A DNA stretch of 13,056 nucleotides from Myxococcota bacterium (GCA_041288095.1 JBGGMJ010000118.1:1-13056); one strand, 5' to 3'. Shown: positions 1-13,056, counted from the stretch's first letter. The notes: generated from the sequence alone by a model not told the origin. A program made the numbers and translations.

Positions 1-15
1 GGGGCCAAGCAAGCC

Positions 16-876
16 TCAAGCAGCGTTTAGGGGGTGTCCAACATACGGGGCGAGGATGGCGCGCGCCTCGTCGATGCCCTTGAGGTCGTAGGGCATGTCC
101 ACACCGGCGCCTCGTAGGGTGCGAATCAATACCTCGGTGGCGATGTTGCCTCGAGCCCCGGTGGCGTAAGGGCAACCGCCGATGCCACCGGCGCTGGCGT
201 CGTAGCGCACGACTCCATGGGCGAGCCCCGCGAGGACGTTGGCGCGCGCGTTGCCGAAGGTGTCGTGAAAGTGCAGCGCCACCCGCGCGGCGGGCACGAC
301 CGGCAAGAGCTCATCGAGCACCGCGCGTACTTCGTCGGGACTCGCCTTGCCGATGGTGTCGCCGATCGAAATCTCGTCGCAACCCAGGTCGGCCAAACGC
401 TTGGCGACCTCGACGACCCGCGCCGGCTGAATCTTGCCCTCGTAGGGACACCAGAAGGCCGTCGATACGTAGCCACGCGTGCGTAGGCCCTCGTGTTTGG
501 CTCGCGCCATGACCGGCACGAAGCGTTCGAAGCTGCCGTCGATGGTGGTGTTGATGTTCTTCTGATTGAAGGTCTCGCTAGCGGCGGTGAAGACCGCGAT
601 AGCGTTGACCTTCACCGAGAGCGCGCGCTCGAGGCCCTGGACGTTGGGTACCAGCGCCATGGCCACCATTCCGGGCCTGCGGACGACACGCTGGAACACC
701 AGCTCCGCGTCGGCGAGCTGCGGGATGCGCGGATGCGCGACGAAGGCGCTGACCTCGATCTCGAGCAAACCAGCGGCGGTGAGCGCGTCGACATAGGCCA
801 CCTTGACGTCGGTGGGTATCGTTCGCGCCTCGTTTTGTAGGCCGTCGCGGGGGCCTACTTCGATGACGACCGCCAT
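16..876 (-). CDS. liuE: Hydroxymethylglutaryl-CoA lyase (DRE-TIM metallolyase)
   Basis: N-terminal EVGPRDGLQNE motif, HFHDTFG metal-binding motif, GGIGGCPYATGARGNIATE catalytic Cys loop. Start moved from ORF-track 951 to ATG 876 (MAVVIEVGPRDG), which fits the family N-terminus and a promoter just upstream. Near liuBCD. Confidence 0.95.
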   Translation of the reverse strand: MAVVIEVGPRDGLQNEARTIPTDVKVAYVDALTAAGLLEIEVSAFVAHPRIPQLADAELVFQRVVRRPGMVAMALVPNVQGLERALSVKVNAIAVFTAASETFNQKNINTTIDGSFERFVPVMARAKHEGLRTRGYVSTAFWCPYEGKIQPARVVEVAKRLADLGCDEISIGDTIGKASPDEVRAVLDELLPVVPAARVALHFHDTFGNARANVLAGLAHGVVRYDASAGGIGGCPYATGARGNIATEVLIRTLRGAGVDMPYDLKGIDEARAILAPYVGHPLNAA

Positions 877-882
877 CCACTC

Positions 883-911
883 AAAATGCATCCGCCCGGC
901 CAGGGGTACAA
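883..911 (-). promoter_or_regulatory. Putative sigma70-type promoter for HMG-CoA lyase (TTGTAC-N17-CATTTT), probably leaderless
   Basis: Minus strand: TTGTAC (911-906), 17-nt spacer, CATTTT (888-883), 6 nt, then ATG at 876. No convincing Shine-Dalgarno. Confidence 0.45.
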
Positions 912-936
912 GCGTCACCGGATCGGGATGCGATCC

Positions 937-967
937 CACACAACCCACCACCCTTCGGCGCCGAATA
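937..967 (+). promoter_or_regulatory. Shared bipartite motif, copy 1 (CACACAAC-N15-GCCGAATA), sigma28-like promoter candidate
   Basis: CAAC 941-944, GCCGAATA 960-967, 10 nt before GTG 978. Aligns with the copies at 2139, 8150 and 12682. Confidence 0.55.
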
Positions 968-977
968 TCTCGACTCC

Positions 978-2120
978 GTGCAGTTCAGATTCCCAAGGCT
1001 AGCGGCGACACGCATCGCCGTTGACGGTCCTTCTTCGGCCGGAAGCCTCGCGCCGTCCAAAGGCGCTCAAATCCCACCCCGACGGGCGGAATTTCCGGTT
1101 CCTCCGCTCCCACCTCGCGGGCCACGCCTTAGCCTCCCGGGTCTCACGGGGACGCCGCCGGTCCCGCTGGTCGACCTGTCGGCTTATACGTTCAACACCC
1201 ATCGCCGGCCCGACGGGCGTCAGGTGCAAATCGAGCGCTGGGGCGAAATCGTCGTGCCCGACCTTCTCGGGCCTGGCGGCGCTGAGCTCCCGCCACTGAT
1301 CATCGACGGGCCCGAAGCGCGCTTTCAGGTCTTCGGGGACACCGGCAAGGGCAGCAAGGCGCAATTAGAAGTGGCCGCGAACATCGTGGCGCTGGCCAAG
1401 GAGCGACGCATCCACGCCAACATGCTCGTTGGCGACATCATCTATCCGCGCGGCCTGCTGTCAGCCACCGACCCCAAGCTCGTCGACCTCTATCTGAAGC
1501 CCTACGGCGCCCTCTCCGAGGTGCACCTGATGTACGGCAACCACGAATACGGCGATGGCCGGGGCGCTGGCGTGCCCGAAGCTTGGCTCGAGGCCGTGCG
1601 CACGGGCAAGGCCGGCGACGCGCGCATTCCGCAACGCTATTACAGCCGCCGCTTCCTCGTCGACGGCATGACCATCCGCGCGCTCTTCCTGGACACAGCG
1701 ACCATCGCCGTCGATCCGCTGCAACTCGCCTGGATCAAGCACGAGGTCGACAAGGGCGCGGACTACACCTTGGTGTTCGGTCACCACCCTATCTACTCGG
1801 CCGGTCTGCACGGCGTCCTCGCGCACATGGAGAAGCTGCTCTTGCCCCTGCTCGAGGGCAAAGCCGACATGTACGTCTGCGGCCACGACCACAATCTGCA
1901 GCTGCTGCGCACCGACAAGGGCCTGCCGCTCATGGTCAGTGGCTCGGCCGGCGAGGAGCGCGTCAGCTGGCGCACGCCGAAGACGGAGTTCTTCAGCCAG
2001 CGCATGGGCACCGCGTTCATCACCGTCGACCGCGAGGGCATCAATGCCGAGTGGATGAACGGCAAGACGCGCGAGTCGCTGCACAAGGCACAGTTCGCGC
2101 GGAGAAAACCGCTTCGCTGA
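978..2120 (+). CDS. Metallophosphoesterase, purple acid phosphatase/TRAP(ACP5)-like, with ~110-aa Pro-rich N-terminal extension
   Basis: All five PAP motifs are present in order: GDTG (DxG), GDIIY (GDxxY), GNHEY, VFGHH (VxxH), GHDH (GHxH). The GTG start is less certain. Confidence 0.88.
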   Translation: MQFRFPRLAATRIAVDGPSSAGSLAPSKGAQIPPRRAEFPVPPLPPRGPRLSLPGLTGTPPVPLVDLSAYTFNTHRRPDGRQVQIERWGEIVVPDLLGPGGAELPPLIIDGPEARFQVFGDTGKGSKAQLEVAANIVALAKERRIHANMLVGDIIYPRGLLSATDPKLVDLYLKPYGALSEVHLMYGNHEYGDGRGAGVPEAWLEAVRTGKAGDARIPQRYYSRRFLVDGMTIRALFLDTATIAVDPLQLAWIKHEVDKGADYTLVFGHHPIYSAGLHGVLAHMEKLLLPLLEGKADMYVCGHDHNLQLLRTDKGLPLMVSGSAGEERVSWRTPKTEFFSQRMGTAFITVDREGINAEWMNGKTRESLHKAQFARRKPLR

Positions 2121-2138
2121 CGATTTGGCGCACATCCC

Positions 2139-2168
2139 CGCGCAACCCTGGCGAGGTCGCTCCGAAAA
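2139..2168 (+). promoter_or_regulatory. Shared bipartite motif, copy 2 (CGCGCAAC-N14-TCCGAAAA)
   Basis: Lies in the 57-nt gap between the phosphatase and the next ORF and ends 9 nt before ATG 2178. The spacer is 1 nt shorter than in the other copies. Confidence 0.55.
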
Positions 2169-2177
2169 CATGACCCT

Positions 2178-3236
2178 ATGTCGCTCTCTCCGGTTTCGCG
2201 TTATGCGCAGGGTCTCGAGACCGTTGCGCCCTCGGAAGCCCCGCTAGAGGGCGCGGCACCAGCGCCCGCACCGAGCACCGCCGTCGTCGTTTGGACGCCA
2301 CCGCCCGAGCCCAGCGCCTGGCAGCGTCTGATGTGGAGCATGTTCGGCCGGCCGGAGCCGGGTCTCGACGGCCGCTTCGATCACGTGCTCGTCGACGCCT
2401 CCATGATCACCATGCCGAAGGACCAACGTCTCGCGGCCATCGTCCTGGGGCTCGCCAAGGGTGGCCGGCTCTCGGTGAAGGGGCTCTTCGAGACACTCGC
2501 GAGCGATGGGGCCGGGAGCATCAAGCCCTCGCAGGTCGACGGCGTCCGCAAGAGCATCCGCCTCGCCGCCGAGAAGCTCGAGCAACGCTCCCCGGGGGCC
2601 AAGCTCGCGGATGCCGCGAGGGTCCAACTCGACGTTCTCCGTCGCGACCTGGACGCGCTCGATAGCTTGCGAACCGAGCCGTACCGTCTGCTGCAGCGGG
2701 CTGAGGGCGGGGTCGCGTCGCTCCTCGCGCCCTTCGACGGACACCATTCCGAGCTGCAGGCGCTCCTCGCGGGTGCCGCGAGCGCCGCCGGCGCCGAGCA
2801 CGACAAGATCGAGATCATTCGCGCCGGGCTCGCGGGCCTGGTGGCGCGGCGCGACGCCGTCGGTCCGTCGGTCGACCAGCAGCTCGCCGCGATCCACACC
2901 GCCGCCCGGGAGCACAAGACGAAGGCCGCCGAAGCCGCCAGGGCGGATGAAGCGCGTGTCGCCGTGATCACGGCGCTCTCACCCGCGGAACGTGCCCGCT
3001 ATGGCGAACGCCTCGAACAAGCGGCGAAGATCGGCGCACGCTTCTCCACTCCCACGGGCAGCGCGGTACCGGCGCATGACGTTCTCGCCCATCTCGCGTG
3101 GCATGGCGTCGAGGTATCGCTCGGCGGTCCCGGCCTGTTCTCGCAGCTCTTGCGACAGCCGACCGGGCCGAGTCAGACGATCAGGGACCTGACGAGCCTC
3201 GAGGACCTGCTCAAGCGGCTGGGCGTTCCCCGCTAG
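2178..3236 (+). CDS. Hypothetical protein (352 aa), Pro/Ala-rich N-terminus, largely alpha-helical/coiled-coil body
   Basis: Long ORF filling the gap, with high-GC third-position codon usage and protein-like composition. Its stop overlaps the convergent biotin carrier stop (CTAG 3233-3236). No family recognised. Confidence 0.75.
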   Translation: MSLSPVSRYAQGLETVAPSEAPLEGAAPAPAPSTAVVVWTPPPEPSAWQRLMWSMFGRPEPGLDGRFDHVLVDASMITMPKDQRLAAIVLGLAKGGRLSVKGLFETLASDGAGSIKPSQVDGVRKSIRLAAEKLEQRSPGAKLADAARVQLDVLRRDLDALDSLRTEPYRLLQRAEGGVASLLAPFDGHHSELQALLAGAASAAGAEHDKIEIIRAGLAGLVARRDAVGPSVDQQLAAIHTAAREHKTKAAEAARADEARVAVITALSPAERARYGERLEQAAKIGARFSTPTGSAVPAHDVLAHLAWHGVEVSLGGPGLFSQLLRQPTGPSQTIRDLTSLEDLLKRLGVPR

Positions 3237-3595
3237 CTGCTCTCGAGGCGCACCAGCGTCGTCCCGAGATCGACGAGCTCGCCCTCGCTGCAGCCAACCT
3301 CCGCGACCACGCCTTCGCGGGGCGCGGTGAGCCGGTACTCCATCTTCATGGCTTCGAGCACGAGCAAGAGGTCACCCTCTGCCACCTTGGCGCCCGGCTT
3401 GGTGCGTACCTGTACGACCCTCGCGGTCATGGGCGCGACCACGGCGTCCCCGGTGCTGGCGGCGTTGCCTGCTTTCGCGGACGTGTCGGCGAAGAACTTG
3501 GCACCACCCGGGTAGCCGACCCAAACGCCTTTTGGCGTGCGCACCACGGCGACGCGCACGCGGCGGCCTTCATGCTCGATGATGCGAAAGCTCAT
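3233..3595 (-). CDS. Biotin carboxyl carrier protein (stand-alone biotinyl subunit of the methylcrotonyl-CoA carboxylase)
   Basis: EAMKM biotinylation motif and APMTARV...GDLLLVL biotinyl fold. ATG 3595 overlaps the upstream TGA (ATGA 3595-3592), so the start was moved from 3634. Confidence 0.92.
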   Translation of the reverse strand: MSFRIIEHEGRRVRVAVVRTPKGVWVGYPGGAKFFADTSAKAGNAASTGDAVVAPMTARVVQVRTKPGAKVAEGDLLLVLEAMKMEYRLTAPREGVVAEVGCSEGELVDLGTTLVRLESS

Positions 3596-5043
3596 GTGCC
3601 GGTGCTCATGCGGAACCCGCCGAGACGCTGCCACGGTGAATACACGTCGCCACCGCTCGCGGAGCTCCTGCGAACCGTGACCGCGGCGGCACGCGCCAGC
3701 TCATCGACGTAGGCCGGCACCGGCGGTTCGGGCCAGGTCGCGGTCTCGACGGTCGTCGTGAAGGTCTGCGCCGTCTTGAAGGCGTCGCTCTCGAGGAGCT
3801 GCGAAAGAAAGATCTGGTTGGTGACGACGCCGAGCACCGTGGTCGCCCGCAATGCGGCGAGCAGCCGGGTACGCGCTTCCTCGCGGGTCGAGCCGTGCGC
3901 GATGACCTTGGCCAGCAGCGAGTCGTAGGCCGGCGTCACCTCGGAGCCCTGCGCCACGCCCGCGTCGACACGCACACCGGGTAGGCGCGGCCACTCGACG
4001 ACCAGGAGCTTGCCGGTCTGCGGCAAGAAGCCGTGGTACGGATCTTCGGCGTTCAAGCGCGCTTCGATGGCGTGTCCCCGCGATGGCGGCGCTTGCTGCG
4101 GCAGCGAGCCACCGAGCGCGATCTCGATCTGCGCACGCACGATGTCGAAGCCGGTGATGAGCTCGGTGACCGGGTGCTCGACCTGGAGACGCGTGTTCAC
4201 CTCGAGGAAGTAGAAACCGCCGTCGGGGCCGACGATGAACTCGACCGTGCCCGCTGAAGCGTACTGGGCGGCTTCGGCGAGGCGCACCGCCGCGGCATGC
4301 AGCGCCTGACGGGTCTCGTCACTGATCGCGGCCGACGGACCTTCCTCGATGATCTTCTGGTAGCGCCGCTGCAGCGAGCACTCGCGATCACCGAGCGCGA
4401 TGGCGCGCTTGCCGTCACCCAAGACCTGCACCTCGACGTGGCGCGCGGGATGCACGTACTTCTCGATCTGCATGCGGTCGTCGCCGAACGCCGCTTTCGC
4501 CTCGCGCTGCGCCGCCGCGAAGGCCTCGGCGATCTGCTTGGCATCGTCGACGCGGCGCATGCCCTTGCCGCCGCCGCCGCCGGAGGCCTTCAGCAAGACG
4601 GGATAGCCGATACGATCGGCGATGCGCTGCGCCGCCGCGGGGTCTTCGATGCTCTTGTCGCCTGGCACGACGGGGACCTGAGCGCTCTCGGCGAGCTGGC
4701 GTGAGCCACGCTTGTCGCCGAGAGCGCGCATCGCTTTGGCGGACGGACCGATGAAGGTCACCTTGGCCGCGTCACAAGCCTCGACGAACTCCGCGCTCTG
4801 CGAGACGAAGCCGTAGCCTGGATGAACAGCCTTGGCGCCGGTGGCTTTCATGGCGTCGATGAGCTTGGCGATGTCGAGGTAAGCCCGTGGCTCCCCGAGG
4901 CCTATGGCGTGGTCGGCGAGCCTTACGTGCGGCGCGTCGGCATCGACGTCGGTGAAGACCGCAACCGCCTCATGACCGAGCTCGCGGATACCCGCGATCA
5001 GCCGGCACGCGATCTCGCCACGGTTCGCGACCAGGATCTTCAC
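3592..5043 (-). CDS. liuD: Biotin carboxylase (methylcrotonyl-CoA carboxylase alpha subunit, without biotin domain)
   Basis: [78 protein letters not shown] overlap with the upstream gene. Confidence 0.93.
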   Translation of the reverse strand: MKILVANRGEIACRLIAGIRELGHEAVAVFTDVDADAPHVRLADHAIGLGEPRAYLDIAKLIDAMKATGAKAVHPGYGFVSQSAEFVEACDAAKVTFIGPSAKAMRALGDKRGSRQLAESAQVPVVPGDKSIEDPAAAQRIADRIGYPVLLKASGGGGGKGMRRVDDAKQIAEAFAAAQREAKAAFGDDRMQIEKYVHPARHVEVQVLGDGKRAIALGDRECSLQRRYQKIIEEGPSAAISDETRQALHAAAVRLAEAAQYASAGTVEFIVGPDGGFYFLEVNTRLQVEHPVTELITGFDIVRAQIEIALGGSLPQQAPPSRGHAIEARLNAEDPYHGFLPQTGKLLVVEWPRLPGVRVDAGVAQGSEVTPAYDSLLAKVIAHGSTREEARTRLLAALRATTVLGVVTNQIFLSQLLESDAFKTAQTFTTTVETATWPEPPVPAYVDELARAAAVTVRRSSASGGDVYSPWQRLGGFRMSTGT

Positions 5044-5810
5044 GACCAGCTCGGCTTCTTCTTGGCGAGAAACGCGTTGAGGCCTGCTTGGCCCTCGGCC
5101 GAGACCCGCAGGTCGGCGATGAGCTGCGTGGTCATGGCGGTGTGATCGCCGCGGCCACTGACGTCGTGGATGAGCTTCTTCGCGGCACGCACGGCCTTCG
5201 GTCCGTTCGCGCGGATGGCGTCGACACAGAGCATCACCTGATCGTCGACCGATTCGCCATCGACCGCCTCGTGAATGAGACCGATCTCCTTGGCGGTGCG
5301 GGCATCGAAAATCTCGCCGGTCACGAAGTAACGGCGCGCCGGACCGACGCCGATCTTGGCGATGACGTAGGGCGAGATCACCGCCGGCACGAGGCCGAGC
5401 TTCACCTCGGTGAGCGCGAACTTCGTCTGGTCGTCGGCGATGGCGATGTCGCAGCAGGCAACGAGCCCCAGCCCCCCGCCCATGGCGGCGCCGTGAATGC
5501 GACCAATGACCGGCACCGGACAGCGATCGACGACCTCGAAAACCTTCGCCATGGTGCGCGCGTCGCTGACGTTCTGCTCGACCGAGTAGGTCGTGCTCTC
5601 CTGCATCATCGCGAGGTCCGCGCCCGCGCAGAAGACCGCGCCGTCGCCCTGCAAGATGACGACGCGCGCGCTTTCGTCGATGGACCCGAACGTTTGGATG
5701 AGCTCGTGGACGAGGGTGGTGTTGAAGGCATTGCGCACATCGGGACGCGCAAGGTTGACGGTGACGATGCCGGCGTCGCGCTCGACGCGAAGGGTTTCCA
5801 TGGGCTTCAC
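5040..5810 (-). CDS. liuC: Enoyl-CoA hydratase/isomerase, probably methylglutaconyl-CoA hydratase
   Basis: Crotonase motifs [44 protein letters not shown]. Sits between the MCC beta and alpha genes. Alternative start ATG 5801. Confidence 0.9.
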
Positions 5811-7414
5811 ATCCTGAAGACCGGAGCGCGTCGCTCGCGCGCTTCCGCGTTCAAGGCCGCCGAGAGCGCGAGACCCACCACCTGGCGCGTCTGTGCCGGC
5901 TCGATAATGCCGTCGTCCCAGAGGAGGCTGGTGCCGTAGTACGGATCGCCTTCGCGCTCGTACTTCTCCATGACGGGCTTCATGATGGACTGCTCTTCTT
6001 CAGCGGACATCTGCTGGCCGTCGCGCGCCAGCTTCTCACGGCGCACCTGCGCCAGCACCCGCGCGGCCTGCTCGGCGCCCATGACGGACACGCGCGAGTT
6101 CGGCCAGGTGAAGAGAAAGCGCGGCAAATAGCCTCGGCCGCTCATGGCGTAGTTGCCGGCGCCGTGCGAGCCACCGATGAGCAAGGTGATGCGCGGGACC
6201 GTCGCGGTGGCGACCGCTTGCACCATCTTGGCGCCGTCTTTGGCGATGCCGCCCTGCTCGTAGCGCTTGCCCACCATGAAGCCGGTGATGTTCTGCATGA
6301 ACAGAATCGGCACGCCCCGCTGGTCGCACATGTTGATGAAGTGCGCGCCCTTCAGGGCGCTCTCGCTGAAGAGCACACCGTTGTTGGCGACGATGCCGAC
6401 CGGGTAGCCGAGCCAGCGCGCGAAGCCGCAGACCAGTGTCGCGCCATAATTGGCCTTGAACTCGTGGAAACGCGAGCCGTCGACGAGGCGGGCGATGACC
6501 TCGCGCACGTCGTAGGGATGGCGGTTGTCCGTCGGCAAGATGCCGTAGAGCTCGTCCGCGGGATATAGCGGGTCCTCGGGCTCGGCGACGTCGACGCCGA
6601 CTCGTTTCACCGTGTTCAAGGTCTCGACGATGTTGCGGCAGATGCGCAGGGCTTCGGGCTCGTCGGCCGCCAGATGGTCCGTGACACCGGAGATGCGCGA
6701 GTGCATGTCGCCGCCGCCCAGGTCCTCGGCGGTCACTTCTTCGCCAGTCGCCGCCTTCACCAGCGGCGGACCCGCGAGGTAGATGGTGCCCTGGTTCTTG
6801 ACAATGATGTTCTCGTCCGCCATCGCGGGCACATAGGCGCCGCCGGCCGTCGACATGCCGAGCACCACGGCCACTTGAGGAATGCCGCGCGCGCTCATGG
6901 TGGCCTGGTTGTAGAAGATGCGGCCGAAGTGCTCCTTGTCCGGGAAGACCTCGGACTGCAGCGGCAAGAAGGCGCCGCCCGAGTCGACGAGGTAAACGCA
7001 CGGCAGGCGGTTCTCGGCGGCGATCTCCTGCGCGCGCACGTGCTTCTTCACGGTCTCCGGGTAGTACGAGCCACCCTTCACCGTGGAGTCATTGGCGACG
7101 ATCATGCATTCGCGGCCGTGGATGATGCCGATGCCGGTGATGATACCCGCGGACGGCACTTGGCCGTCATGGCGCCCGTAAGCCGCTAGAGCGGACAGCT
7201 CGAGGAACGGCGTTTGCGGGTCGAGCAGACGCTCGATGCGGGCGCGCGGCATGAGCTTGCCGCGGCTCTCCTGGACTTTCTTGGCGTCGGCGCTGCCTCC
7301 CGCGCGCACGGCGGCGATGCGCTCGCGGAGCTGTTGCACCAAAGCTTCATGGTGCCGGCGGTTGTCGCGGAACGCTGGGTCGCCGGTGCGTACGCGGCTC
7401 TGCAACACGTCCAT
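5807..7414 (-). CDS. liuB: Methylcrotonyl-CoA carboxylase beta subunit (carboxyltransferase)
   Basis: [88 protein letters not shown]-terminal VFRM. Confidence 0.95.
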
Positions 7415-7457
7415 CGCTCGCGGTCAGACCACGGCGTGGCTGGGCGCGCAAGCGGAC

Positions 7458-8015
7458 TCAGTCGCGATGCTCGACCCTCGATTGCTTGGTGAACGCGTCC
7501 TCCGGGTCGAAGCCGGCGCGCTCCAACATCCGCGAAAAAACATCATAGCGGTGCACATGGCCGGGTAGATTCACGATGAACGAACGGCCATGGTGCACAC
7601 CGATGCGGATCCACGGGACGTTGACCCGCTCTTCACCCTGGGGATCGCCGGAGTGGAAGTCGGCGTTTTCGAGCGCCGCGATCGGCACGTCGCGAGAGGC
7701 GCTGCCAAACAGCGACGGGTGCTCGAGCTCGAGGACATCACCGGGCTTGTAAAAGATGCGCTGGGTCACCTTGCGGTTATGGAGCCAGGCCCAGCCGAGG
7801 AACGCGAGCCCACCACCGGCGATGACGCTCGCCCATGCGAGCCGCTGGCCCACGGGGGCGAGCTGAGTTCCCCAGTTCATGCTGGTGAAGACGTAACCGG
7901 CCAAGAAGAATGAGAAGATTGCCGTACCGATGGCGAACAGGGCGGTCACCCGCGCTCCGGTCATCGGCTCGTTCTCGTACACCAAGACGCGATCGGCATC
8001 TTTCGAGCGGTTCAT
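7458..8015 (-). CDS. Hypothetical membrane protein, two N-terminal TM helices plus soluble beta-rich C-terminal domain
   Basis: Hydrophobic segments VTALFAIGTAIFSFFLAGYVF and LAWASVIAGGGLAFLGWAWL. Strong RBS GGGAGG just upstream of ATG 8015. Confidence 0.75.
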   Translation of the reverse strand: MNRSKDADRVLVYENEPMTGARVTALFAIGTAIFSFFLAGYVFTSMNWGTQLAPVGQRLAWASVIAGGGLAFLGWAWLHNRKVTQRIFYKPGDVLELEHPSLFGSASRDVPIAALENADFHSGDPQGEERVNVPWIRIGVHHGRSFIVNLPGHVHRYDVFSRMLERAGFDPEDAFTKQSRVEHRD

Positions 8016-8149
8016 GACGTCCTCCCACCTGGCTCTAAGCTAGGGCGTCTGGGTCCATGCGGTAGGCCCTGGGGAGCAAATCCCCAGTATTCACGGCCCT
8101 CATGGCCGCCGCTACCGACGCGTTGCGACACAGAGACGTGCTGTAGTGG

Positions 8150-8180
8150 CGCGCAACGATCGCGTAGGCGGGAACGATAC
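8150..8180 (+). promoter_or_regulatory. Shared bipartite motif, copy 3 (CGCGCAAC-N15-AACGATAC)
   Basis: CAAC 8154-8157, CGATA 8175-8179. Upstream of the 8234 orphan. Confidence 0.5.
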
Positions 8181-8233
8181 TGTTTTTGGCTCATTGCGCG
8201 CCTACGCTTGCGCGCCGTGATTCAGGAGCTCTG

Positions 8234-8572
8234 GTGACCCTTCTGCCCGTCGACGCCTTGGCTGCCACTCATCCGCGCGCGGAATCCGCGAACGATGAGC
8301 TCCCCGTCCGGACTGCCCCGCGCCTCGCGGTCGCCGCCAATCTACCGCCGCGTCAGCCTCGTTTCGCGGCCCCGGTGACCAGCAACACGGCCGGCCTCGC
8401 GGTCCCGAGCGCCGCCAGCACGTTCAAGCTCGCCGCGGCCCGCCTGCGCGCCCTCGAAGAGCTCGCCGGCAACGTCGAGCGCGACATGGGTGACGCCTAT
8501 CAAGCGGTCGCCGGTCACTTCGAAGCGCAGATCGCCGACGCCCGCGCCGAGGTCGAGTCCCTCAAAGCCTAA
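8234..8572 (+). CDS. Hypothetical protein (112 aa), disordered Pro/Ala N-half and helical C-half
   Basis: AGGAG (8224-8228) lies 5 nt before in-frame GTG 8234. The C-terminal half (FKLAAARLRALEELAGNVERDMGDAYQAVAGHFEAQIADARAEVESLKA) is amphipathic helical with typical codon usage. TTG 8186 is an alternative start. Confidence 0.65.
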   Translation: MTLLPVDALAATHPRAESANDELPVRTAPRLAVAANLPPRQPRFAAPVTSNTAGLAVPSAASTFKLAAARLRALEELAGNVERDMGDAYQAVAGHFEAQIADARAEVESLKA

Positions 8573-8615
8573 CGATCGCGCTACCCCCGCTTATCTTGAG
8601 AGTCGGGGGATTGGG

Positions 8616-9047
8616 ATGCGACGTGTAACGCTGCTGTGCCTCGCGCTTTGCGCATGTGGCATGCCGCGCGACCGCAAGGATACCTTGGCGCGCGTCGAGC
8701 ACGGTGAGCTGCGCGCCGGCTTCACGCACCATCCGCCCGAGGTCGACTGTCATGCCGGCGGACCGCGTGGCGATGAAGTGGCGATGATCGAGCGCTTGGC
8801 CGCGAAGCTCGAGGCGCGCCTCGTCACCACCTGCGCCTCGGAAGCCGAGCTCGTCGAAGACCTGCGGGCGCTCCGCATCGACATCGCCGCCGGAGCGTTC
8901 GATGGGCAATCACCGTGGCGCAAGAGGGCCGGGGCCACCCTGCCGCATAGCCGCCATAGCGGACGGAGGTTTCTCGTACCACCCGGCGAGAACGCTTGGC
9001 TGATGCGGGTCGATCGCCTCATCGCCTCCGCGGAGCTCTCGCCATGA
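8616..9047 (+). CDS. Short lipoprotein with partial solute-binding (SBP family 3-like) domain
   Basis: Signal MRRVTLLCLALCA/C with lipobox, then PRDRKDTLARVEHGELRAG, G-D-E-V..LAAKL and IDIAAG, which resemble the first lobe of family-3 SBPs. ATGA-coupled to the CDF gene. Start moved from 8490 to ATG 8616. Confidence 0.75.
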   Translation: MRRVTLLCLALCACGMPRDRKDTLARVEHGELRAGFTHHPPEVDCHAGGPRGDEVAMIERLAAKLEARLVTTCASEAELVEDLRALRIDIAAGAFDGQSPWRKRAGATLPHSRHSGRRFLVPPGENAWLMRVDRLIASAELSP

Positions 9048-9991
9048 TGCTGACGACGCCGGTCGAATACCCGAAGAGCTTTCTCGCCGCCGAGCGCCGC
9101 GCCAAGCGCATCGCGGCGTGGTCCATCATCTACGTCGTCTCGACGATCGTCTTCATGGGCCTGACCATGGGCGGCTCGCAGGCCATGAAGACCGTTTGGT
9201 TCGACGACATTCTCGGGCTCATTCCGCCGGTCTCGTTCCTGGTTGGCGCCGCGGTGGCCAAGCGCCGCGCCACCGCCGACTACCCGTACGGGTTCCTGCG
9301 CGCGCCGATGATCGGTCACCTCGCGAGCGCCCTCGCGCTCATCGCCTTCGGCATCATGCTGGCGGTGGAAGCCGTCTTGGCGTTGCTCGAGCACACACCA
9401 CCGTCGATCGGCGGCACCGTGGTGTTCGGCCGCGTCATCTGGAGCGGATGGCTCATGCTAGCCGCTTTAGCGTACAGCATCGTGCCGATGGCGATCTTCG
9501 GCCACTCGAAGGAGAAGGCCGCTCTCCCCATCCACGACCGCGCCCTCTTGGCGGACGCGGCCATGGCGCGCGCCGACTGGCTCAGCGGCGGCGCGGCGGT
9601 CGCCGGCGTCGTCGGTGTCGGCTTGGGCTTCTGGTGGGCGGACGCCGTCGCGGCGCTCGTCGTCTCGCTCGACATCCTCCACGATGGCGCGCAGCAGATT
9701 CGCGGCGCCGTCAGCCGCCTCATCGGAGCTCCGCCGCGCACGCTACAGAAGGGACGCGAGGACGTCTTGATCGAAGACGTGAAGCGCCATCTCCTCGAGC
9801 TCGACTGGGTCGCGGGAGCCGACGTGCGGCTGCGCGAAGAAGGCCATGTGGTCTTCGGCGAGGCCACCGTGGTACCGCGCGTCACCGACGACATCGGCAC
9901 CAAGCTGAGCGATGCGCGGCAAGCCATTCGCCAACGTCACTGGCGCATGCACGACCTGACGATCACGGTCGCCGCGCGATTGCCGCCATGA
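9044..9991 (+). CDS. Cation diffusion facilitator (CDF) family metal efflux transporter
   Basis: About six TM segments, ADYPYGF (HPYG-like loop), TM5 LLADAAMARADW, WWADAVAALVV, and a C-terminal cytosolic domain with VRLREEGHVVFGE. Start ATG 9044 overlaps the upstream TGA. Confidence 0.9.
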   Translation: MMLTTPVEYPKSFLAAERRAKRIAAWSIIYVVSTIVFMGLTMGGSQAMKTVWFDDILGLIPPVSFLVGAAVAKRRATADYPYGFLRAPMIGHLASALALIAFGIMLAVEAVLALLEHTPPSIGGTVVFGRVIWSGWLMLAALAYSIVPMAIFGHSKEKAALPIHDRALLADAAMARADWLSGGAAVAGVVGVGLGFWWADAVAALVVSLDILHDGAQQIRGAVSRLIGAPPRTLQKGREDVLIEDVKRHLLELDWVAGADVRLREEGHVVFGEATVVPRVTDDIGTKLSDARQAIRQRHWRMHDLTITVAARLPP

Positions 9992-10637
9992 CCACCGCCA
10001 CCATGCGGTCGCAACGCGGAGCCTGGAACCCGAAAAGATCCGCCGCGGCGGAGCCGAGCTCCGCGCTGAGACGCGCCCGCAAAAGCGAGCGCGCCCGCGA
10101 CAGCCGCATCTTCAGTGCATCTTCGCCAATGTCGAGGCATGCCGCGGCCTCGGCGGTGCTCATGGCCTCCACGTCGCGCAGGACGTAAGCGGCTCGCAAC
10201 CCGGCGGGTAGAGCGTCGACAGCGCGCTCGAGCAACACGCGCAGCTCTCCCGAGAAAGCGTCGCGCTCGGGGGAGCGCTGGCTCTCGTCCGCCATGATGG
10301 ACTCCTCGTCGTCGATGATGCTCATGCCGCCGCGTCGCTTCTTCAAGCGACCAAGTGCCTCGTACAAAGCGATGCGCGTGAGCCAGGTCGATAGCTTTGC
10401 CTCGCCACGGAAGGTCGCGAGCTTGCCGAAGGCGTCGATGTAAGCGTCCTGCATCGCGTCTTCGGCCTCGGCGTCGTCCTTCAGCACGGAGCGCGTGACC
10501 CGAAAGAGGCGCTGGTTGTAGCGGCGGATGATGAGCTCGAAGAGCGCGACTTCGCCGGCGAGCACGCGCCTCACGACGGTCTCGTCGTCGAGTTGAGCGG
10601 CGTCCGCGAGTCGCGACGGTTGATTCTCTGCCTTCAT
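9963..10637 (-). CDS. ECF RNA polymerase sigma-70 factor with short C-terminal RCD extension (ECF29-like)
   Basis: Region 2 FELIIRRYNQRLFRV...AEDAMQDAY...FRGEAKLSTWLTRIA, region 4 LRAAYVLRDVEAMSTAEAAACL...KMRLSRARSLL, tail FGFQAPRCDRMVAVVM. 3' end overlaps the convergent CDF gene by 29 nt. Confidence 0.92.
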   Translation of the reverse strand: MKAENQPSRLADAAQLDDETVVRRVLAGEVALFELIIRRYNQRLFRVTRSVLKDDAEAEDAMQDAYIDAFGKLATFRGEAKLSTWLTRIALYEALGRLKKRRGGMSIIDDEESIMADESQRSPERDAFSGELRVLLERAVDALPAGLRAAYVLRDVEAMSTAEAAACLDIGEDALKMRLSRARSLLRARLSAELGSAAADLFGFQAPRCDRMVAVVMAAIARRP

Positions 10638-10645
10638 GAACGGAC

Positions 10646-10673
10646 AGAGCCCTCCCCGCCGAAAAAGGTAACA
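10646..10673 (-). promoter_or_regulatory. Possible autoregulatory ECF promoter (TGTTACCTTTTT-N11-GCTCT)
   Basis: AT-rich TGTTACCTTTTT (10673-10662) stands out from the GC-rich context and sits at -35 distance from ATG 10637. The -10 assignment is weak. Confidence 0.3.
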
Positions 10674-10815
10674 GGGATGTTAGCTGGGGGCCCACTGCAT
10701 ACCTCTCCAAGAAAGCGCTGCCGATTCCGCTGGTCTTGATCCACGGCCTAGCGGCGATCACCGGCTTCTGCTTGCTCCTGGCCGCGGCGTTCCAAGCAGC
10801 TTCATGAAGCTGGGG

Positions 10816-10844
10816 TTGGGGTAAGCCGCAAGAGCTGCTAGGCT
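10816..10844 (+). promoter_or_regulatory. Putative sigma70 promoter with extended -10 (TTGGGG-N17-TAGGCT, preceded by TGC)
   Basis: TTGGGG 10816-10821, 17-nt spacer ending in TGC, TAGGCT 10839-10844, 10 nt to ATG 10855, no Shine-Dalgarno. Confidence 0.5.
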
Positions 10845-10854
10845 TCGCGCGCCC

Positions 10855-12636
10855 ATGGGCCCCCTCGCGGTAACCTTCGCCAATCTGCTGATCACTTCCG
10901 GAGACGACGGCCACGCGGTCATCGGCAACATCGCCTTGTGCGTTGTAGCGGCCAGCATCTTGGGCTTCCTGATGAAGATCACCAAGCAGCCGCTCATCTT
11001 GGGCTACGTGCTCGCCGGCGTGGTCATCGGCCCGATCGGCGCGCGCTTCATCACCGACAACTCCGACATCGCCACCATCTCGGAGATCGGTCTCATTCTT
11101 CTCCTCTTCATGATCGGTCTCGAGATCGACTTGAAGAAGATGCTGTCCGCCGGCGCCAAGGTCATAGTCCCCGGCGTCTTGCAGTTCCCGCTGTGCCTCG
11201 GCGCGGGCTACCTCGCCTTCCATGGCTTGAAGGCGATCGGGCTGTCGGTGGGTGATTCCGCTTACGCGGAGCTCTACTGCGCCATCGCCATCAGCATGAG
11301 CAGCACCATGATCGTGGTGAAGCTGCTCTTCGACAAGTTCGAGCTCGACACTCTGCCCGGCCGCATCACCGTCGGCATTCTCGTCTTCCAGGACATCTGG
11401 GCGATCATGGTTCTGGCGGTGCAGCCGAACTTCGCCGATCCCCAGATTGGCGCCATTCTGCTCACCTTCGTGCGTGGGGCCGTCCTCGTCGGCGCCGCTC
11501 TGATGGCTTCCCGTTACGTGTTGCCCAAGATCTACCGCACGGTGGCGCGTGTCCCCGAGCTGATGCTGGTCATCTCGCTCGGCTGGTGCTTCCTCGTGGC
11601 GTTGGTCGCCGCGTTGCCGCAGGTCGGTTTGTCGATGGAGATGGGCGCGCTCATCGCCGGCGTCTCGCTCGCGACCTTCCCTTACAACACCGACGTCATC
11701 GCCAAGGTCGTCTCCATCCGCGACTTCTTCATCACGCTGTTCTTCGTGGCGCTCGGCATGACCATTCCGCTGCCCGAGGGCAACGTGCTCGTCGTCGCCG
11801 GAGCGGTCGCGCTCATCGCCATCACCGTGCGCTTCCTCGGGATCTTCGGCGTCCTCTACAGCCTGAACAGCGGCCACCGCGCCTCGCTGCTCGCCACCAT
11901 CAACCTGGCGCAGATCAGCGAGTTCGCGCTGGTGATCCTGACCCTGGGCGTCAGCCTCGGCCACGTCGAAGGCGGCACTCTCACCACCATCACCTGGGTG
12001 TTCGCGTTGCTGGCGGTCGCCTCGACCTACGGCATTACGTACAGCCACCCGATACAGCGCGGCATGAGCGTGGTGCTGTCGGCGGTGGGCATCCGCGACC
12101 TCGCCAACGTCAAGGAAGACGAGGGCGGCGACCACGCGCATCCCATCGTCATGCTCGGGTTCTTCCGCATCGCCAGCGCTTTCCTCGACGAGGTGCTGCG
12201 CAAACATCCGCACCTGAAAGAGTCGATCAAGGTCGTCGACTTCAATCCCGAGGTCCGCGAGAAGCTGACCGGCATGGGCGTCGCCTGTGTCTACGGCGAC
12301 GTCAGCAACGCCGACACGCTGCACCACGCCAACATCCACCACGCCCAGCTCGTGCTCTGCACGATTCCCGACGCCTTCTTGAAGGGCACGAACAACAAGA
12401 AGCTCATCGACCTGGTGCGCAACCTTTGCCCGCACGCCAAGGTCCTGGTCACCGCCGAGCGCACCACCCACGCCCGCGAGCTCTACGAAGTCGGCGCCGA
12501 CTATGTCATCCAGCCGTCCGTCTTGGCGGGCGAGAGCGTCGCCCGAGCCGTCGAGCTCGGCCTCTCCGGCGACCTCGAAGTCCTGCGCAGCACGGCTCGG
12601 GAAGAGCTCGGTCTGCGCAACGAAGTGTTGGCCTAG
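10855..12636 (+). CDS. Cation:proton antiporter, CPA2/Kef family, with C-terminal RCK (TrkA-N) domain
   Basis: KQPLILGYVLAGVVIGP, EIGLILLLFMIGLE, SSTMIVVKLL, GILVFQDI, MGALIAGV, FFVALGM, QISEFALV. C-terminal VVDFNP and YGDVSN RCK motifs. Confidence 0.93.
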   Translation: MGPLAVTFANLLITSGDDGHAVIGNIALCVVAASILGFLMKITKQPLILGYVLAGVVIGPIGARFITDNSDIATISEIGLILLLFMIGLEIDLKKMLSAGAKVIVPGVLQFPLCLGAGYLAFHGLKAIGLSVGDSAYAELYCAIAISMSSTMIVVKLLFDKFELDTLPGRITVGILVFQDIWAIMVLAVQPNFADPQIGAILLTFVRGAVLVGAALMASRYVLPKIYRTVARVPELMLVISLGWCFLVALVAALPQVGLSMEMGALIAGVSLATFPYNTDVIAKVVSIRDFFITLFFVALGMTIPLPEGNVLVVAGAVALIAITVRFLGIFGVLYSLNSGHRASLLATINLAQISEFALVILTLGVSLGHVEGGTLTTITWVFALLAVASTYGITYSHPIQRGMSVVLSAVGIRDLANVKEDEGGDHAHPIVMLGFFRIASAFLDEVLRKHPHLKESIKVVDFNPEVREKLTGMGVACVYGDVSNADTLHHANIHHAQLVLCTIPDAFLKGTNNKKLIDLVRNLCPHAKVLVTAERTTHARELYEVGADYVIQPSVLAGESVARAVELGLSGDLEVLRSTAREELGLRNEVLA

Positions 12637-12681
12637 CACTCGCGGCAGCGCCACTGCGACACCGCACGACGCGCTCCCGCT

Positions 12682-12712
12682 CGCGCAACGGCGCCGCAGC
12701 TGCTCCCGATAT
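12682..12712 (+). promoter_or_regulatory. Shared bipartite motif, copy 4 (CGCGCAAC-N15-CCCGATAT)
   Basis: CAAC 12686-12689, CCCGATAT 12705-12712 (6/8 to GCCGATAA). Upstream of the 12766 ORF. Confidence 0.6.
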
Positions 12713-12765
12713 CTCCCCCGCGCCCGGGTCCCCGCGGCGCACCCTCACACAATCGGAGCATTTCA

Positions 12766-13056
12766 ATGGCCACCATCAAGTGGGCAAAGGCACACGTAGG
12801 TACGCACGTTCAAGGCGTTCGCGCGGGCGCGCGGGAAATCGGCGCCATCATCCGCAAGGCGAAGGAAGAGGACGGCGCCATCGAGGACACCGCCCTCAAG
12901 GTCGCGTTGCGCGGTAAGCCGCGCGCTCTCTGGTCCGCGGTCATGGGCACCTACGCCTCGACCGTCGGCGACATCCACCACTCGCCCACCCGCGAGCAGC
13001 TCTTGAAGACCCTCGGCCGCCGCACCGCCGACGTCATCAGCGCCGACGCTGATGGC
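12766..13056 (+). CDS. Hypothetical protein, 3' end truncated by the window edge (MATIKWAKAHVGTHVQGVRAGAREIGAIIRKAKEEDGAIEDTALKVALRGKPRALWSAVMGTYAST...)
   Basis: GGAG RBS at 12755-12758, ATG 12766, open frame to the end of the window with strongly GC3-biased codons. Absent from the ORF track because it has no stop in the window. Confidence 0.75.
   Translation, partial: MATIKWAKAHVGTHVQGVRAGAREIGAIIRKAKEEDGAIEDTALKVALRGKPRALWSAVMGTYASTVGDIHHSPTREQLLKTLGRRTADVISADADG

Follow-up and report, generated by a model that had tools for sequence, protein, structure and literature searches.

The four copies of a two-box motif in the window, the whole 13,056-nucleotide stretch of Myxococcota DNA analysed here, are probably promoters of one genome-wide sigma-28-family class, most likely read by sigma A, a divergent FliA paralogue. 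The promoter reading is supported by comparative and statistical evidence from sequence; the genome searched was the 5.85-Mb Myxococcota MAG assembly of an uncultured myxobacterium (G000). All four plus-strand sites reported in an earlier note are present, each located between called genes and facing the next gene. The sites and the genes that follow them are:

940..967, plus strand: site 1, a weak variant promoter candidate identified by pattern match and conservation; -35 box ACAAC at 940-944 and -10 octamer GCCGAATA at 960-967, 15 nt apart; transcription predicted from near 975, leaderless-like with the GTG start codon at 978
978..2120, plus strand: 380-aa calcineurin-like metallophosphoesterase (ORF; Pfam PF00149, E 1e-10)
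2142..2168, plus strand: site 2, candidate promoter identified by pattern match, PWM score 18.0 and footprint in four genomes; -35 box GCAAC at 2142-2146 and -10 octamer TCCGAAAA at 2161-2168, 14 nt apart; transcription predicted from near 2176, leaderless-like with the ATG at 2178
2178..3236, plus strand: 352-aa protein with no Pfam family
8153..8180, plus strand: site 3, candidate promoter identified by pattern match and PWM score 18.0, boxes kept in four genomes; -35 box GCAAC at 8153-8157 and -10 octamer AACGATAC at 8173-8180, 15 nt apart; transcription predicted from near 8188, giving a leader of about 45 nt with AGGAG at 8224-8228
8234..9991, plus strand: the three genes after site 3
8234-8572, plus strand: first of these, a 112-aa orphan
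8616-9047, plus strand: second, a 143-aa orphan with a lipoprotein-like N-terminus
9044-9991, plus strand: third, a cation-diffusion-facilitator gene
12685..12712, plus strand: site 4, candidate promoter identified by pattern match and PWM score 19.3, conserved in G000, G001 and G002; -35 box GCAAC at 12685-12689 and -10 octamer CCCGATAT at 12705-12712, 15 nt apart; transcription predicted from near 12720, with the ATG at 12766
12766..13056, plus strand: orphan gene leaving the contig end, 97 aa seen

The pattern CRCRCAAC-N17-CGAWW matches the window at 937, 8150 and 12682, and its N16 form at 2139; 0.01 matches per pattern are expected in dinucleotide shuffles of the window. No further match in the window scores at least 16, and the next best (14.9, 14.2 and 13.5) are all within coding sequence, in agreement with the earlier reading by eye that the full motif is absent in front of the liu, CDF, Kef and ECF genes. 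The cation-diffusion-facilitator gene may be co-transcribed from site 3, the extent of the operon being judged by short gaps alone.

Comparison of the genus genomes G000-G003, which are about 80% identical in DNA, revealed conserved boxes and diverged spacers at all four sites. With a PWM score of just 10.1, site 1 is in the noise range. Its two boxes vary little or not at all among the four genomes, around an unalignable spacer and with the GTG kept, and for this reason the candidate is rescued by conservation despite its low score. In G002 the motif of site 3 is intact between deletions on both sides, and the GTG is now 9 nt after CGATA. Site 4 is missing from G003, where synteny breaks.

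The strict pattern of the earlier note (CRCRCAAC-N16/17-CGAWW) has 59 matches in the assembly. Its core, GCAAC-Nk-CGATA, occurs 193 times with k=16 (133 sites) or k=17 (60 sites); each remaining value of k between 8 and 29 (20 in all) gives only 1-15 sites, and the near-constant spacing noticed in the window holds genome-wide. With a PWM made by leave-one-position-out counting, 230 of the 252 sites scoring at least 18 fall into intergenic DNA, which constitutes only 8.5% of the genome. At thresholds of 12, 14, 16 and 18 intergenic DNA contains 505, 413, 329 and 230 sites, against 121, 46, 14 and 3 for control spacers (3.2 at scores of at least 18, a background of about 1%). The intergenic excess over control spacers is about 370 sites genome-wide. 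On these counts the class would drive about 370 promoters, or roughly 13% of transcription units, and the regulon would be very large, as the earlier note had expected if the density of sites in the window held genome-wide. That density itself does not extend to the genome, where the average is roughly one site per 16 kb and the window is about five times denser.

Among the 329 intergenic sites scoring at least 16, 308 face the 5' end of a gene, 15 face a 3' end and six face a contig end. The gene-facing orientation is therefore found in 308 of the 323 scored sites (95%), compared with a baseline of 66% for facing a 5' end; together with the intergenic location, this bears out the description of the motif as an intergenic, sense-strand element. 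For 59 of the 308 sites the first in-frame start codon is 8-13 nt past CGATA, in 47 cases an ATG; there are no start codons at 14 nt and two at each distance of 15-18 nt. This peak would place the start where it lies in sigma-28 promoters. The spacing of start codons points to transcription starting about 8 nt past the -10 octamer, and by start-codon position about a fifth of the transcripts of the class would be leaderless.

The unbiased consensus, obtained by leave-one-out counting, is cGCAAC-N14/15-gcCGATAa. The frequencies in the -10 half are 0.52 (g), 0.60 (c), 0.94 (C), 0.99 (G), 0.98 (A), 0.71 (T), 0.82 (A) and 0.45/0.38 (a/c), and the -35 half can be written as c[G/a][C/a]AAC. Between GCAAC and the octamer, 69% of sites have 14 nt and 31% have 15 nt, other lengths being at background. 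With its flanks, gcCGATAa equals GCCGATAA, extended GC included, which is the sigma-28 -10 octamer (PMC8325347, PMC12784957). In sigma-28 promoters the octamer follows TAAA by 15 nt or TCTAAAG by 14 nt, the latter as in the Pseudomonas aeruginosa fliC promoter, TCTAAAG(-30), (-15)GCCGATAA (PMC12784957). In G000, TAAA-N15-CCGATA is not enriched, and TAAA, TAAAG, CTAAA and TTAAG precede CCGATA at 0-2 sites at every spacer. The sigma-28-like -10 half and the departure of the -35 half from TAAA, both proposed from the four window copies, hold in the genome-wide consensus, and the predicted promoter is a sigma-28 -10 joined to a new -35, GCAAC.

The class stands mostly before lineage-specific genes without signal peptides. 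Pfam matches are lacking in 49 of 60 targets, compared with 16 of 66 controls; 257 of the 308 targets are singletons, unrelated to each other, and few have signal peptides. The earlier view of a scattered set of mostly orphan genes is therefore upheld.

Of the 36 Sigma70_r2 genes in G000, about 30 are of the ECF type, and two are FliA/WhiG-like by best NCBIfam and best PDB matches:

G000:C92:35188-36072: sigma A, 293 aa, divergent FliA paralogue
C127:21744-22571: sigma B, with a FlgM-like gene after it

A third paralogue, class C, adjoins flagellin genes in G001-G003, and the best PDB matches of all three are FliA structures. The listing of sigma factors, with the consensus, location and orientation of the sites, supports the proposal of an alternative sigma that reads a GCAAC -35 and a sigma-28-like -10.

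Sigma A is the most likely reader of the motif among the paralogues, as suggested by its sequence and gene neighbourhood. Its best PDB matches are FliA and WhiG chains (E 6e-27 to 6e-17). The best-scoring NCBIfam family is TIGR02479 (FliA_WhiG) at 163.7 bits, under the curated cut-off of 189.6. Pfam matches cover regions 2 and 4 but leave out region 3, a stretch that the alignment with P. aeruginosa FliA crosses with weak identity. In P. aeruginosa FliA the -10 is read by D66, Y76 and R97, the last contacting the extended -10, and the -35 by S224 and Q228 of sigma-4.2 (PMC12784957). Sigma A has D, F and R at the first three positions. In sigma-4.2 it keeps the Ser, while Gln228 is replaced by Arg within GLSKSWTSRLH, a signature found in all class A sequences inspected. 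S269, K270, S271, W272, S274, R275 and H277 of sigma A are invariant in 26 orthologues, the Arg included. These correspondences use an inferred offset of +5 in PDB-chain numbering, adopted because all seven named residues then fit the right letters. The change from Gln228 to Arg fits the changed -35.

RNA polymerase with a FliA/WhiG-like sigma would read c-GCAAC, 14 or 15 nt, and gc-CGATA-a. The -10 half would act as in flagellar class-3 promoters, with the extended GC followed by CGATAA and a start about 8 nt past the octamer, and the -35 half would have shifted from TAAA to GCAAC. Sigma A would match this division, with the -10 contacts kept and an Arg in place of the -35-reading Gln228, and both its operon and a nearby T3SS-like cluster begin with the motif. 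The small conserved operon before sigma A encodes proteins of 111 aa, 185 aa (up3), 138 aa (TPR) and 159 aa (up1), and is preceded in G000 by a motif at C92:38086 (score 19.6). Eleven kb from sigma A lies a flagellum-derived T3SS-like cluster with FliO, FliM/N, a FliK-like protein, FliH and FliP/Q/R, the first gene of which is preceded by a motif at C92:24319 (score 18.6); a sigma A relative in G029, a 9-Mb Myxococcota genome, is about 10 kb from FliP. Of 39 related loci, 19 have a motif scoring at least 16 upstream of the up3 or TPR gene adjoining sigma A; the close relatives L024, L025, L053 and L055 have none upstream of the operon. Across 102 kb of related loci there are 21 sense and two antisense matches, and both antisense matches precede an inverted up3.

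In G000 the motif nearest to sigma A lies before up3, at a distance of about 1.9 kb upstream, and up3 is followed by a hairpin with a T-run. As no motif directly precedes sigma A and this hairpin intervenes, a case for autoregulation is not made. The up1 protein just upstream of sigma A has no Pfam or PDB match; its hhalign probability against the FlgM-like protein of sigma B is 2.3%, and both share a C-terminal AQL..V..G..K.NL.

The presence of sigma A tracks motif enrichment imperfectly over 151 Myxococcota genomes. In this sample, which consists of kin and not of independent genomes and in which the control was the pattern read backwards, a crude one, strong enrichment is found in 23 of the 37 genomes whose sigma A is at least 50% identical, in three of the 52 that have a relative at 35-49%, and in seven of the 62 that have none. 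In two of these seven, G005 and G016, the operon is cut by a contig end at the very place expected for sigma A; G022, G023, G048, G062 and G090 are unexplained, and 14 of the 37 genomes with sigma A have no strong enrichment. G010, a 100% complete genome without flagellin, has sigma A as its sole FliA-like sigma and 50 sites, against 7.

Instead, the reader could be sigma B or class C, acting by itself or in redundancy with sigma A, since all three paralogues are FliA-like by PDB matches and are expected to share the reading of the -10. The motif is densest in genomes that also have sigma B (149-232 sites in G000-G003, 87 in G005), and the FlgM beside sigma B offers a ready regulatory switch. 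We nevertheless consider this unlikely. In sigma B and class C the canonical SRVxQL is intact, with the Ser/Gln pair that reads a TAAA-type -35, while G000 lacks TAAA-type sites, and a flagellar-cluster promoter candidate in G001, a single example, has a -35 of the TCAAGTTT type and not GCAAC. Sigma B orthologues of at least 40% identity occur in only six of 40 relatives (G001-G003, G005, G006 and G012), whereas the motif is enriched across the order, and G010, G013 and G015, with sigma A as the sole FliA-like sigma, still have 50, 48 and 94 sites.

An ECF (group 4) sigma as the reader, with a coincidental likeness of the -10 to GCCGATAA, would draw on the many ECF-type genes of the genome, one of them in the window (9963-10637). 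An AAC -35 core, CG at the -10 and a gap of 16-17 nt are typical of ECF promoters, and the ECF sigma HrpL of plant pathogens uses a single box for both a T3SS and its effectors. This appears quite improbable, because ECF genes usually autoregulate, whereas the 700 nt upstream of each of the 36 sigma genes contain no motif (the best score there is 13.5, inside a coding region). Besides, the flanking g-c and a fit the sigma-28 extended -10, which region-3-less ECF sigmas do not read, and the motif shows physical linkage to the sigma A operon and is enriched in step with the presence of sigma A. A transcription-factor binding site or dispersed repeat is barely credible, even though the promoter reading draws on sequence and not on mapped starts: two short boxes with a fixed 16/17-nt gap and free spacers are unlike a repeat or a palindromic operator, nearly all sites face a gene, the start-codon peak has no other obvious explanation than a transcription start, and the downstream genes are unrelated, so the motif was not spread by gene duplication.

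With sigma A as the preferred reader, the adjacent cluster suggests a link between the GCAAC regulon and the needleless T3SS* of myxobacteria, of which sigma A would be the retained FliA. A FlgM-like brake, perhaps up1, would be exported once the machine engages, and the freed sigma A would switch on the machine, a needle- or pilus-like up3 and the approximately 370 promoters. The orphan products without signal peptides would then represent the substrates, or effectors against prey, long sought for this machine, and GCAAC-N16-CGATA would be a tag for listing them, as the hrp box is for plant-pathogen effectors. Taken whole, from brake and export to promoters and effectors, this reading is doubtful. 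Should it hold, the motif would be a concrete route to the effectors and the regulator of the Myxococcus xanthus T3SS*. Even if the T3SS link is wrong, the predicted regulon would be among the largest of the sigma-28 type described, and several hundred genes of unassigned function in an uncultured lineage, otherwise ungroupable, would be assigned a promoter and a likely regulator. Sigma A would further represent a sigma-28 paralogue that changed its -35 specificity along with a single base-contacting residue (Gln to Arg). Sigma A relatives, together with the linked operon, are found throughout Myxococcota and also in large genomes of the cultured kind.

Flagellar sigma-28 regulons comprise a few tens of promoters, far fewer than predicted here. 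Flagellar class 3 promoters of E. coli, Salmonella and P. aeruginosa have the same -10 octamer with extended GC, the predicted start is likewise about 8 nt past the octamer, and P. aeruginosa fliC has the same 14-nt gap from the -35 word. In contrast, their -35 is TAAA or TCTAAAG and not GCAAC, and their targets are flagellar genes. P. aeruginosa FliA also differs from sigma A in having Gln228, and sigma A scores under the curated family cut-off.

In Bdellovibrio bacteriovorus FliA is a global attack-phase regulator, and TTAAG-N16-CCGATA is found on 92 of 140 attack-phase promoters, many of non-flagellar or uncharacterised genes (Karunker et al. 2013, PMC3627812). The similarity is a sigma-28-type box before many non-flagellar, uncharacterised genes, there in a predator. 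However, Bdellovibrio uses a single flagellar FliA with a -35 near TAAA and a set about four times smaller, whereas here a separate paralogue is likely, the -35 is changed, and a T3SS-like, non-flagellar cluster lies near the likely reader. WhiG of Actinomycetota governs sporulation in Streptomyces and, in Rubrobacter, type IV pili; two Rubrobacter genomes have 20 and 11 candidate sites, and the anti-sigma of WhiG is RsiG with c-di-GMP (PMC8325347, PMC12871210). It is likewise a FliA-family sigma recruited to non-flagellar targets, with regulons predicted from the promoter consensus, but it keeps the TAAA / GCCGATAA specificity and small regulons.

The needleless T3SS* of M. xanthus and the NF-T3SS of early-branching Myxococcales have been described (PMC12075869, PMC3459982). 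The available text of these two papers gives no known effectors or regulator for T3SS*, and the word 'sigma' occurs 0 times in that of either. The point in common is the T3SS-like cluster of G000, with its flagellar-type parts, 11 kb from sigma A. In plant-pathogenic Pseudomonas one hrp box, read by the ECF sigma HrpL, drives the T3SS together with fast-evolving unannotated genes, and the box itself became an effector-finding tool. Similarly, one sigma and one box would here serve a T3SS and a large gene set, although HrpL is an ECF sigma with another box and the products here are known from their genes alone.

The window is one entire contig (G000:C118, 13,056 nt) of a source assembly (G000) of 5.85 Mb with 66% G+C and 212 contigs, about 90% complete. 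For window positions 1-10000, no RNA sequencing run was listed as containing the sequence, whereas five DNA runs contain all or part of it, two of them with at least half of its words.

Genes of the window, from ORF calling and Pfam
16-951, minus strand: HMG-CoA lyase-like gene
978-2120, plus strand: metallophosphoesterase gene
2178-3236, plus strand: orphan
3233-7414, minus strand: four-gene methylcrotonyl-CoA carboxylase/hydratase block
7458-8015, minus strand: small membrane protein gene
8234-9991, plus strand: two orphans and a cation-efflux gene
9963-10637, minus strand: ECF sigma gene
10855-12636, plus strand: Kef-type exchanger gene
12766 onwards, plus strand: orphan running past the contig end

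The four promoter-like motifs (sites 1-4) lie where the earlier note had placed them, each ahead of a plus-strand unit headed by the phosphoesterase or an orphan (genes 978, 2178, 8234 and 12766). The motif clearly exceeds expectation from shuffled sequence: two fixed-gap patterns match the window three times and once, compared to 0.01 matches each in dinucleotide shuffles. In the genome, GCAAC and CGATA are separated by 16 nt in 133 cases and by 17 nt in 60 cases, with 1-15 occurrences at every other spacer from 8 to 29; the same genome-wide count gives no comparable spacer peak for reversed words or reversed box order. Base preferences were determined by leaving each core position free in turn and subtracting the counts at off-target spacers, which avoids circularity. 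The resulting -35 consensus is c-[G.84/A.16]-[C.83]-A-A-C, followed by 14 or 15 free positions and the -10 consensus g(.52)-c(.60)-C-G-A-T(.71)-A(.82)-[a.45/c.38]. A PWM scan of intergenic DNA yields 505, 413, 329 and 230 sites at scores 12, 14, 16 and 18, respectively, the mean of five control spacer pairs being 121, 46, 14 and 3. The excess over the control spacers is stable at about 370 intergenic sites, in agreement with the very large regulon that had been predicted from the window; with 2,819 called first-in-unit genes, this corresponds to about 13% of units. In the ten random 20-kb regions, a site scoring at least 14 was seen within 400 nt of 16 out of 84 first-in-unit genes. Iterative refinement of the PWM on the whole genome was dropped, as it drifted into the codon periodicity of coding sequences (601, 1645, then 4701 "sites").

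A further minus-strand match, TACAAC ... GCCGATGA, is located at window positions 10920-10946 within the first codons of the Kef-type gene and faces the ECF sigma gene, 283 nt downstream. Its score of 13.5 is in the background range, and the match is probably due to chance.

The motif very probably represents a class of promoters that an alternative sigma factor reads. The intergenic placement and sense orientation reported for the four copies hold genome-wide: 230 of the 252 sites scoring at least 18 fall within the 8.5% of the genome left intergenic by the gene caller, and among 329 intergenic sites scoring at least 16, 308 face the 5' end of a gene, 15 face a 3' end and six face a contig end, the 5' end being faced from a random position 66% of the time. 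In 59 of the 308 genes, the first in-frame start codon follows the last A of CGATA by 8-13 nt (47 ATG, 10 GTG and 2 TTG). There are no cases at 14 nt and two each at 15-18 nt, and a second, broader group of 141 genes has distances of 26-60 nt. Since a start codon 8-13 nt after CGATA is usable only on a leaderless mRNA, about a fifth of the motif genes would be leaderless, and the peak puts the transcription start approximately 9-11 nt past CGATA, or 8-10 nt past the octamer, in agreement with the (-15)GCCGATAA(-8) numbering for sigma-28 in the accessible part of a structural study from Pseudomonas aeruginosa (PMC12784957). This leaderless group includes sites 1 and 2, whose genes start with GTG (978) and ATG (2178).

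DNA identity to the window is about 80% in the three other genomes of the genus (G001-G003). Sites 1, 2 and 3 retain both boxes in all four genus genomes, and the spacers, noted as unrelated among the copies, have diverged past alignment. Site 4 keeps its motif in three genus genomes but has lost it in G003, which has a different gene downstream. In G002 (locus L172), two deletions relative to window positions 8000-8240 flank site 3 and spare the motif; GTG is now found 9 nt after CGATA, so that the gene, whose leader is otherwise about 45 nt long, has become leaderless. The 308 downstream proteins are mutually unrelated (280 clusters, of which 257 are singletons and the largest has three members), hence the motif was not spread by duplication.

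The targets are mostly orphans, as the window had suggested. No Pfam family (E <= 1e-4) is assigned to 49 of 60 genes at the best-scoring sites, versus 16 of 66 motif-less first-in-unit genes drawn from ten random 20-kb regions (Fisher p 6e-11); for proteins of at least 300 aa, the respective counts are 19 of 28 and 7 of 43. The 11 annotated targets include trypsin-like, clostripain-like and M36-like peptidases, a serpin, a lipase, a Ser/Thr kinase, a branching enzyme and PSD/PSCyt-domain proteins. A rough N-terminal criterion suggests Sec secretion for 40 of 293 motif genes, versus 898 of 2526 other first-in-unit genes.

The nature of the boxes makes a sigma-28-family factor the likely reader. 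The -10 half had been called sigma28-like, and with its flanks it is indeed the "flagellar" -10 element GCCGATAA, given as the consensus in the available text of PMC8325347 and PMC12784957. According to the latter, the P. aeruginosa fliC promoter has a 14-nt gap between TCTAAAG and this element, equal to the gap of our motif, and the accessible part of PMC3627812 describes the Bdellovibrio attack-phase box as TTAAG-N16-CCGATA. The -35 half is GCAAC, where sigma-28 has TAAA. Canonical TAAA-type -35 words before CCGATA occur 0-2 times at every spacer in the G000 assembly, so that it has one sigma-28-like class, the GCAAC class.

FliA/WhiG-type sigma factors, envisaged as candidates in the earlier note, are present. 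Of the 36 Sigma70_r2 genes in G000, two (sigma A and sigma B) have FliA/WhiG as the best NCBIfam family, the others including RpoD, two RpoD-like proteins, RpoH and many ECF sigmas.

Sigma, secretion and flagellar loci in G000 and, for the last entry, G001
C92:35188-36072: sigma A, divergent FliA-like sigma of 293 aa; FliA/WhiG 163.7 bits, under the curated cut-off of 189.6 (NCBIfam)
C127:21744-22571: sigma B, FliA-like paralogue of 275 aa; FliA/WhiG 166.1 bits, under the curated cut-off of 189.6 (NCBIfam)
C92:37386-37943 (L130:9390-9944): up3, 185-aa protein gene beside a small TPR protein gene; hairpin with a T-run on its 3' side in G000
C92:600-24143 (L174, L175): type III secretion-like cluster with flagellar-type parts
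G001:C2:513000-532500 (L176): sister flagellar cluster, missing from G000 as assembled, that encodes two flagellins, class C FliA and a second FliP

The closest solved relatives of sigma A and sigma B are FliA and WhiG chains. We consider it fairly probable, judging from sequence comparisons, that sigma A specifically reads the motif. Residue roles were taken from the accessible part of PMC12784957, in which R97 of P. aeruginosa FliA reads the extended -10 GC and Gln228 makes a base-specific -35 contact. Aligned to this chain, sigma A retains the equivalents of D66 and R97, has Phe in place of Y76, and carries Arg at the position of Gln228; thus a changed -35 reader would match the changed -35 box. 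In the corresponding helix, GLSKSWTSRLH, the residues S, K, S, W, S, R and H are invariant in 26 orthologues, and every class A sequence inspected has the signature, even at an overall identity of 37%. The canonical sigma-4.2 residues SRVxQL are retained in sigma B and in class C, a third FliA-like paralogue.

The genomic context of sigma A is consistent with this assignment. It is preceded by same-strand genes for a 111-aa protein, up3, a 138-aa TPR protein and up1 (159 aa); in 39 related loci, the TPR gene is present in 34, up3 in 27 and up1 in 15. A motif scoring at least 16 immediately precedes up3, or the TPR gene if up3 is undetected, in 19 of the 39 loci, four of which have less than 300 nt of upstream sequence. 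In 102 kb, operon-upstream motifs are sense in 21 cases versus two antisense, both of the latter preceding an inverted up3. The G000 operon motif (C92:38086) scores 19.6. No motif was found within 700 nt upstream of any of the 36 sigma genes in G000, and the hairpin with a T-run after up3 makes read-through to sigma A, and hence autoregulation, only putative. Also counted against sigma A are its score below the curated family cut-off, region 3 undetected by Pfam, and four close relatives without an operon-proximal motif. A second motif (score 18.9; C92:37920, minus strand), 166 nt downstream of the operon motif, sits inside the called 5' end of up3 and scores 15.5 at the same position in L021 and L022; either up3 starts further downstream or the promoters are in tandem.

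With strong enrichment defined as an excess of at least 20 sites and a ratio of at least 3 over the backwards pattern, the motif is strongly enriched, among 151 Myxococcota genomes, in 23 of 37 having a sigma A of at least 50% identity, 3 of 52 having a 35-49% relative and 7 of 62 without one, a comparison that is descriptive, the genomes being kin and the backwards-pattern control crude. Two of the latter seven, G005 and G016, have an up4-up3(-TPR-up1) operon that leaves the contig where sigma A is expected. The other five (G022, G023, G048, G062 and G090) are enriched though sigma A was not found; in G023, a sigma with 32% identity carries a similar helix, SRSWVTRTH, and a 22.1-scoring motif precedes the up3-like gene. 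In the remaining four, all of family f10 and with no sigma A-like gene detected, the bare pattern is 4-5 times as frequent as its backwards control; several of its occurrences are the same from genome to genome and resemble conserved coding sequence, and the backwards control may be misleading there.

Reading of the motif may be shared or redundant with sigma B, as motif density peaks in genomes also carrying sigma B. The 100% complete genome G010 has 50 sites versus seven in the control, with sigma A as its sole FliA-like sigma and no flagellin. Reading by an ECF sigma is unlikely.

The 80-aa protein encoded directly after sigma B passes the Pfam FlgM cut-off (G000:C127:21744-22851, L131:6745-7851 for the pair). 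No flagellin or rod/hook families were found in the G000 assembly, but it is only 90% complete and the organism is not called non-flagellated; G001-G003 have class C beside two flagellin genes and a second FliP, and G000 probably lacks this flagellar region through incompleteness. Third-codon-position G+C of the G001 flagellar cluster seemed, by a rough look, below that of the genome. Its flagellin promoters show no clear sigma-28-type box; a single TCAAGTTT-N12-TCGATGAA candidate occurs elsewhere in the cluster. No intergenic site scoring at least 18 directly precedes pilus genes in the clusters around the eight T2SSE ATPase genes of G000, where pilins were not located.

The type III secretion-like cluster on the sigma A contig encodes FliR, FliQ, FliP, FliO, FliM/FliN, a FliK-like protein, YscO/FliJ, the ATPase, FliH, a weak FliG_M and YscJ/FliF, and is interrupted by Kup potassium transporter, GNAT acetyltransferase and HD-domain genes. 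Its first gene has an upstream motif (score 18.6, at 24319), and an RND efflux operon and one orphan separate it from the sigma A operon. Away from this cluster, at C31:3284-5302, the FHIPEP (FlhA/SctV) gene adjoins rpoH. FliP is 10-25 kb from sigma A in G001, G010 and G029, the G029 gene being 45% identical and some 10 kb from FliP; in G025 FliP is not on the sigma A contig, and in G037 the two are on different contigs.

The up3 protein, conserved in Myxococcota and compared here between G000 and 25 related loci, measures 160-280 aa and is generally motif-driven. Its middle part is variable and rich in Gly/Ser/Ala, whereas its C-terminal helix, FNLQYL.LQ..MQ...RQF...SNIMKTKHDTAKN.INNVR, hardly varies; in the AlphaFold2 model (mean pLDDT 56), only a long helix at the C-terminus is confident. 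G000 up3 has no Pfam family and a profile search against PDB gave no match below E 1; two of 19 members touch HrpA_pilin (Pfam, E 0.003), and in the atlas one neighbouring cluster, at 0.90, carries T3SS_needle_F in 11% of its members. A needle or pilus protein is thus a possible lead for up3. The up1 protein, without a match in PDB, is disordered at its N-terminus and ends in a conserved region, AQLV..V..G..K.NL, recalling the FlgM-like protein of sigma B (hhalign probability 2.3%, non-significant), and is a candidate anti-sigma of sigma A.

The flagellum-derived T3SS of myxobacteria is an early intermediate form according to the accessible part of PMC3459982, and the "needleless" T3SS* of Myxococcus xanthus lyses prey according to that of PMC12075869. 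We speculate, while considering it rather improbable, that sigma A could be the FliA kept by such a system, the orphans being its substrates; this reading derives from the linkage, the motif before the cluster, the few signal peptides and the weak needle or pilus leads of up3.

The chlamydial sigma-28 is a non-flagellar case among known systems. Other sigma-28 regulons outside flagella are those of Bdellovibrio and WhiG, as described in the available text of PMC3627812 and PMC8325347, respectively. In the literature outside subscription journals and supplements, we found no paper on a GCAAC box or FliA-like sigma in myxobacteria, nor on a shifted -35 box, dedicated paralogue, regulon or T3SS link of this kind. 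Relative to these systems, the new features are the shifted -35 box with its apparently matching Gln-to-Arg change, the putatively dedicated paralogue beside canonical FliA-type sigmas, the regulon's size and its high share of orphans, and the link to a T3SS-like cluster.
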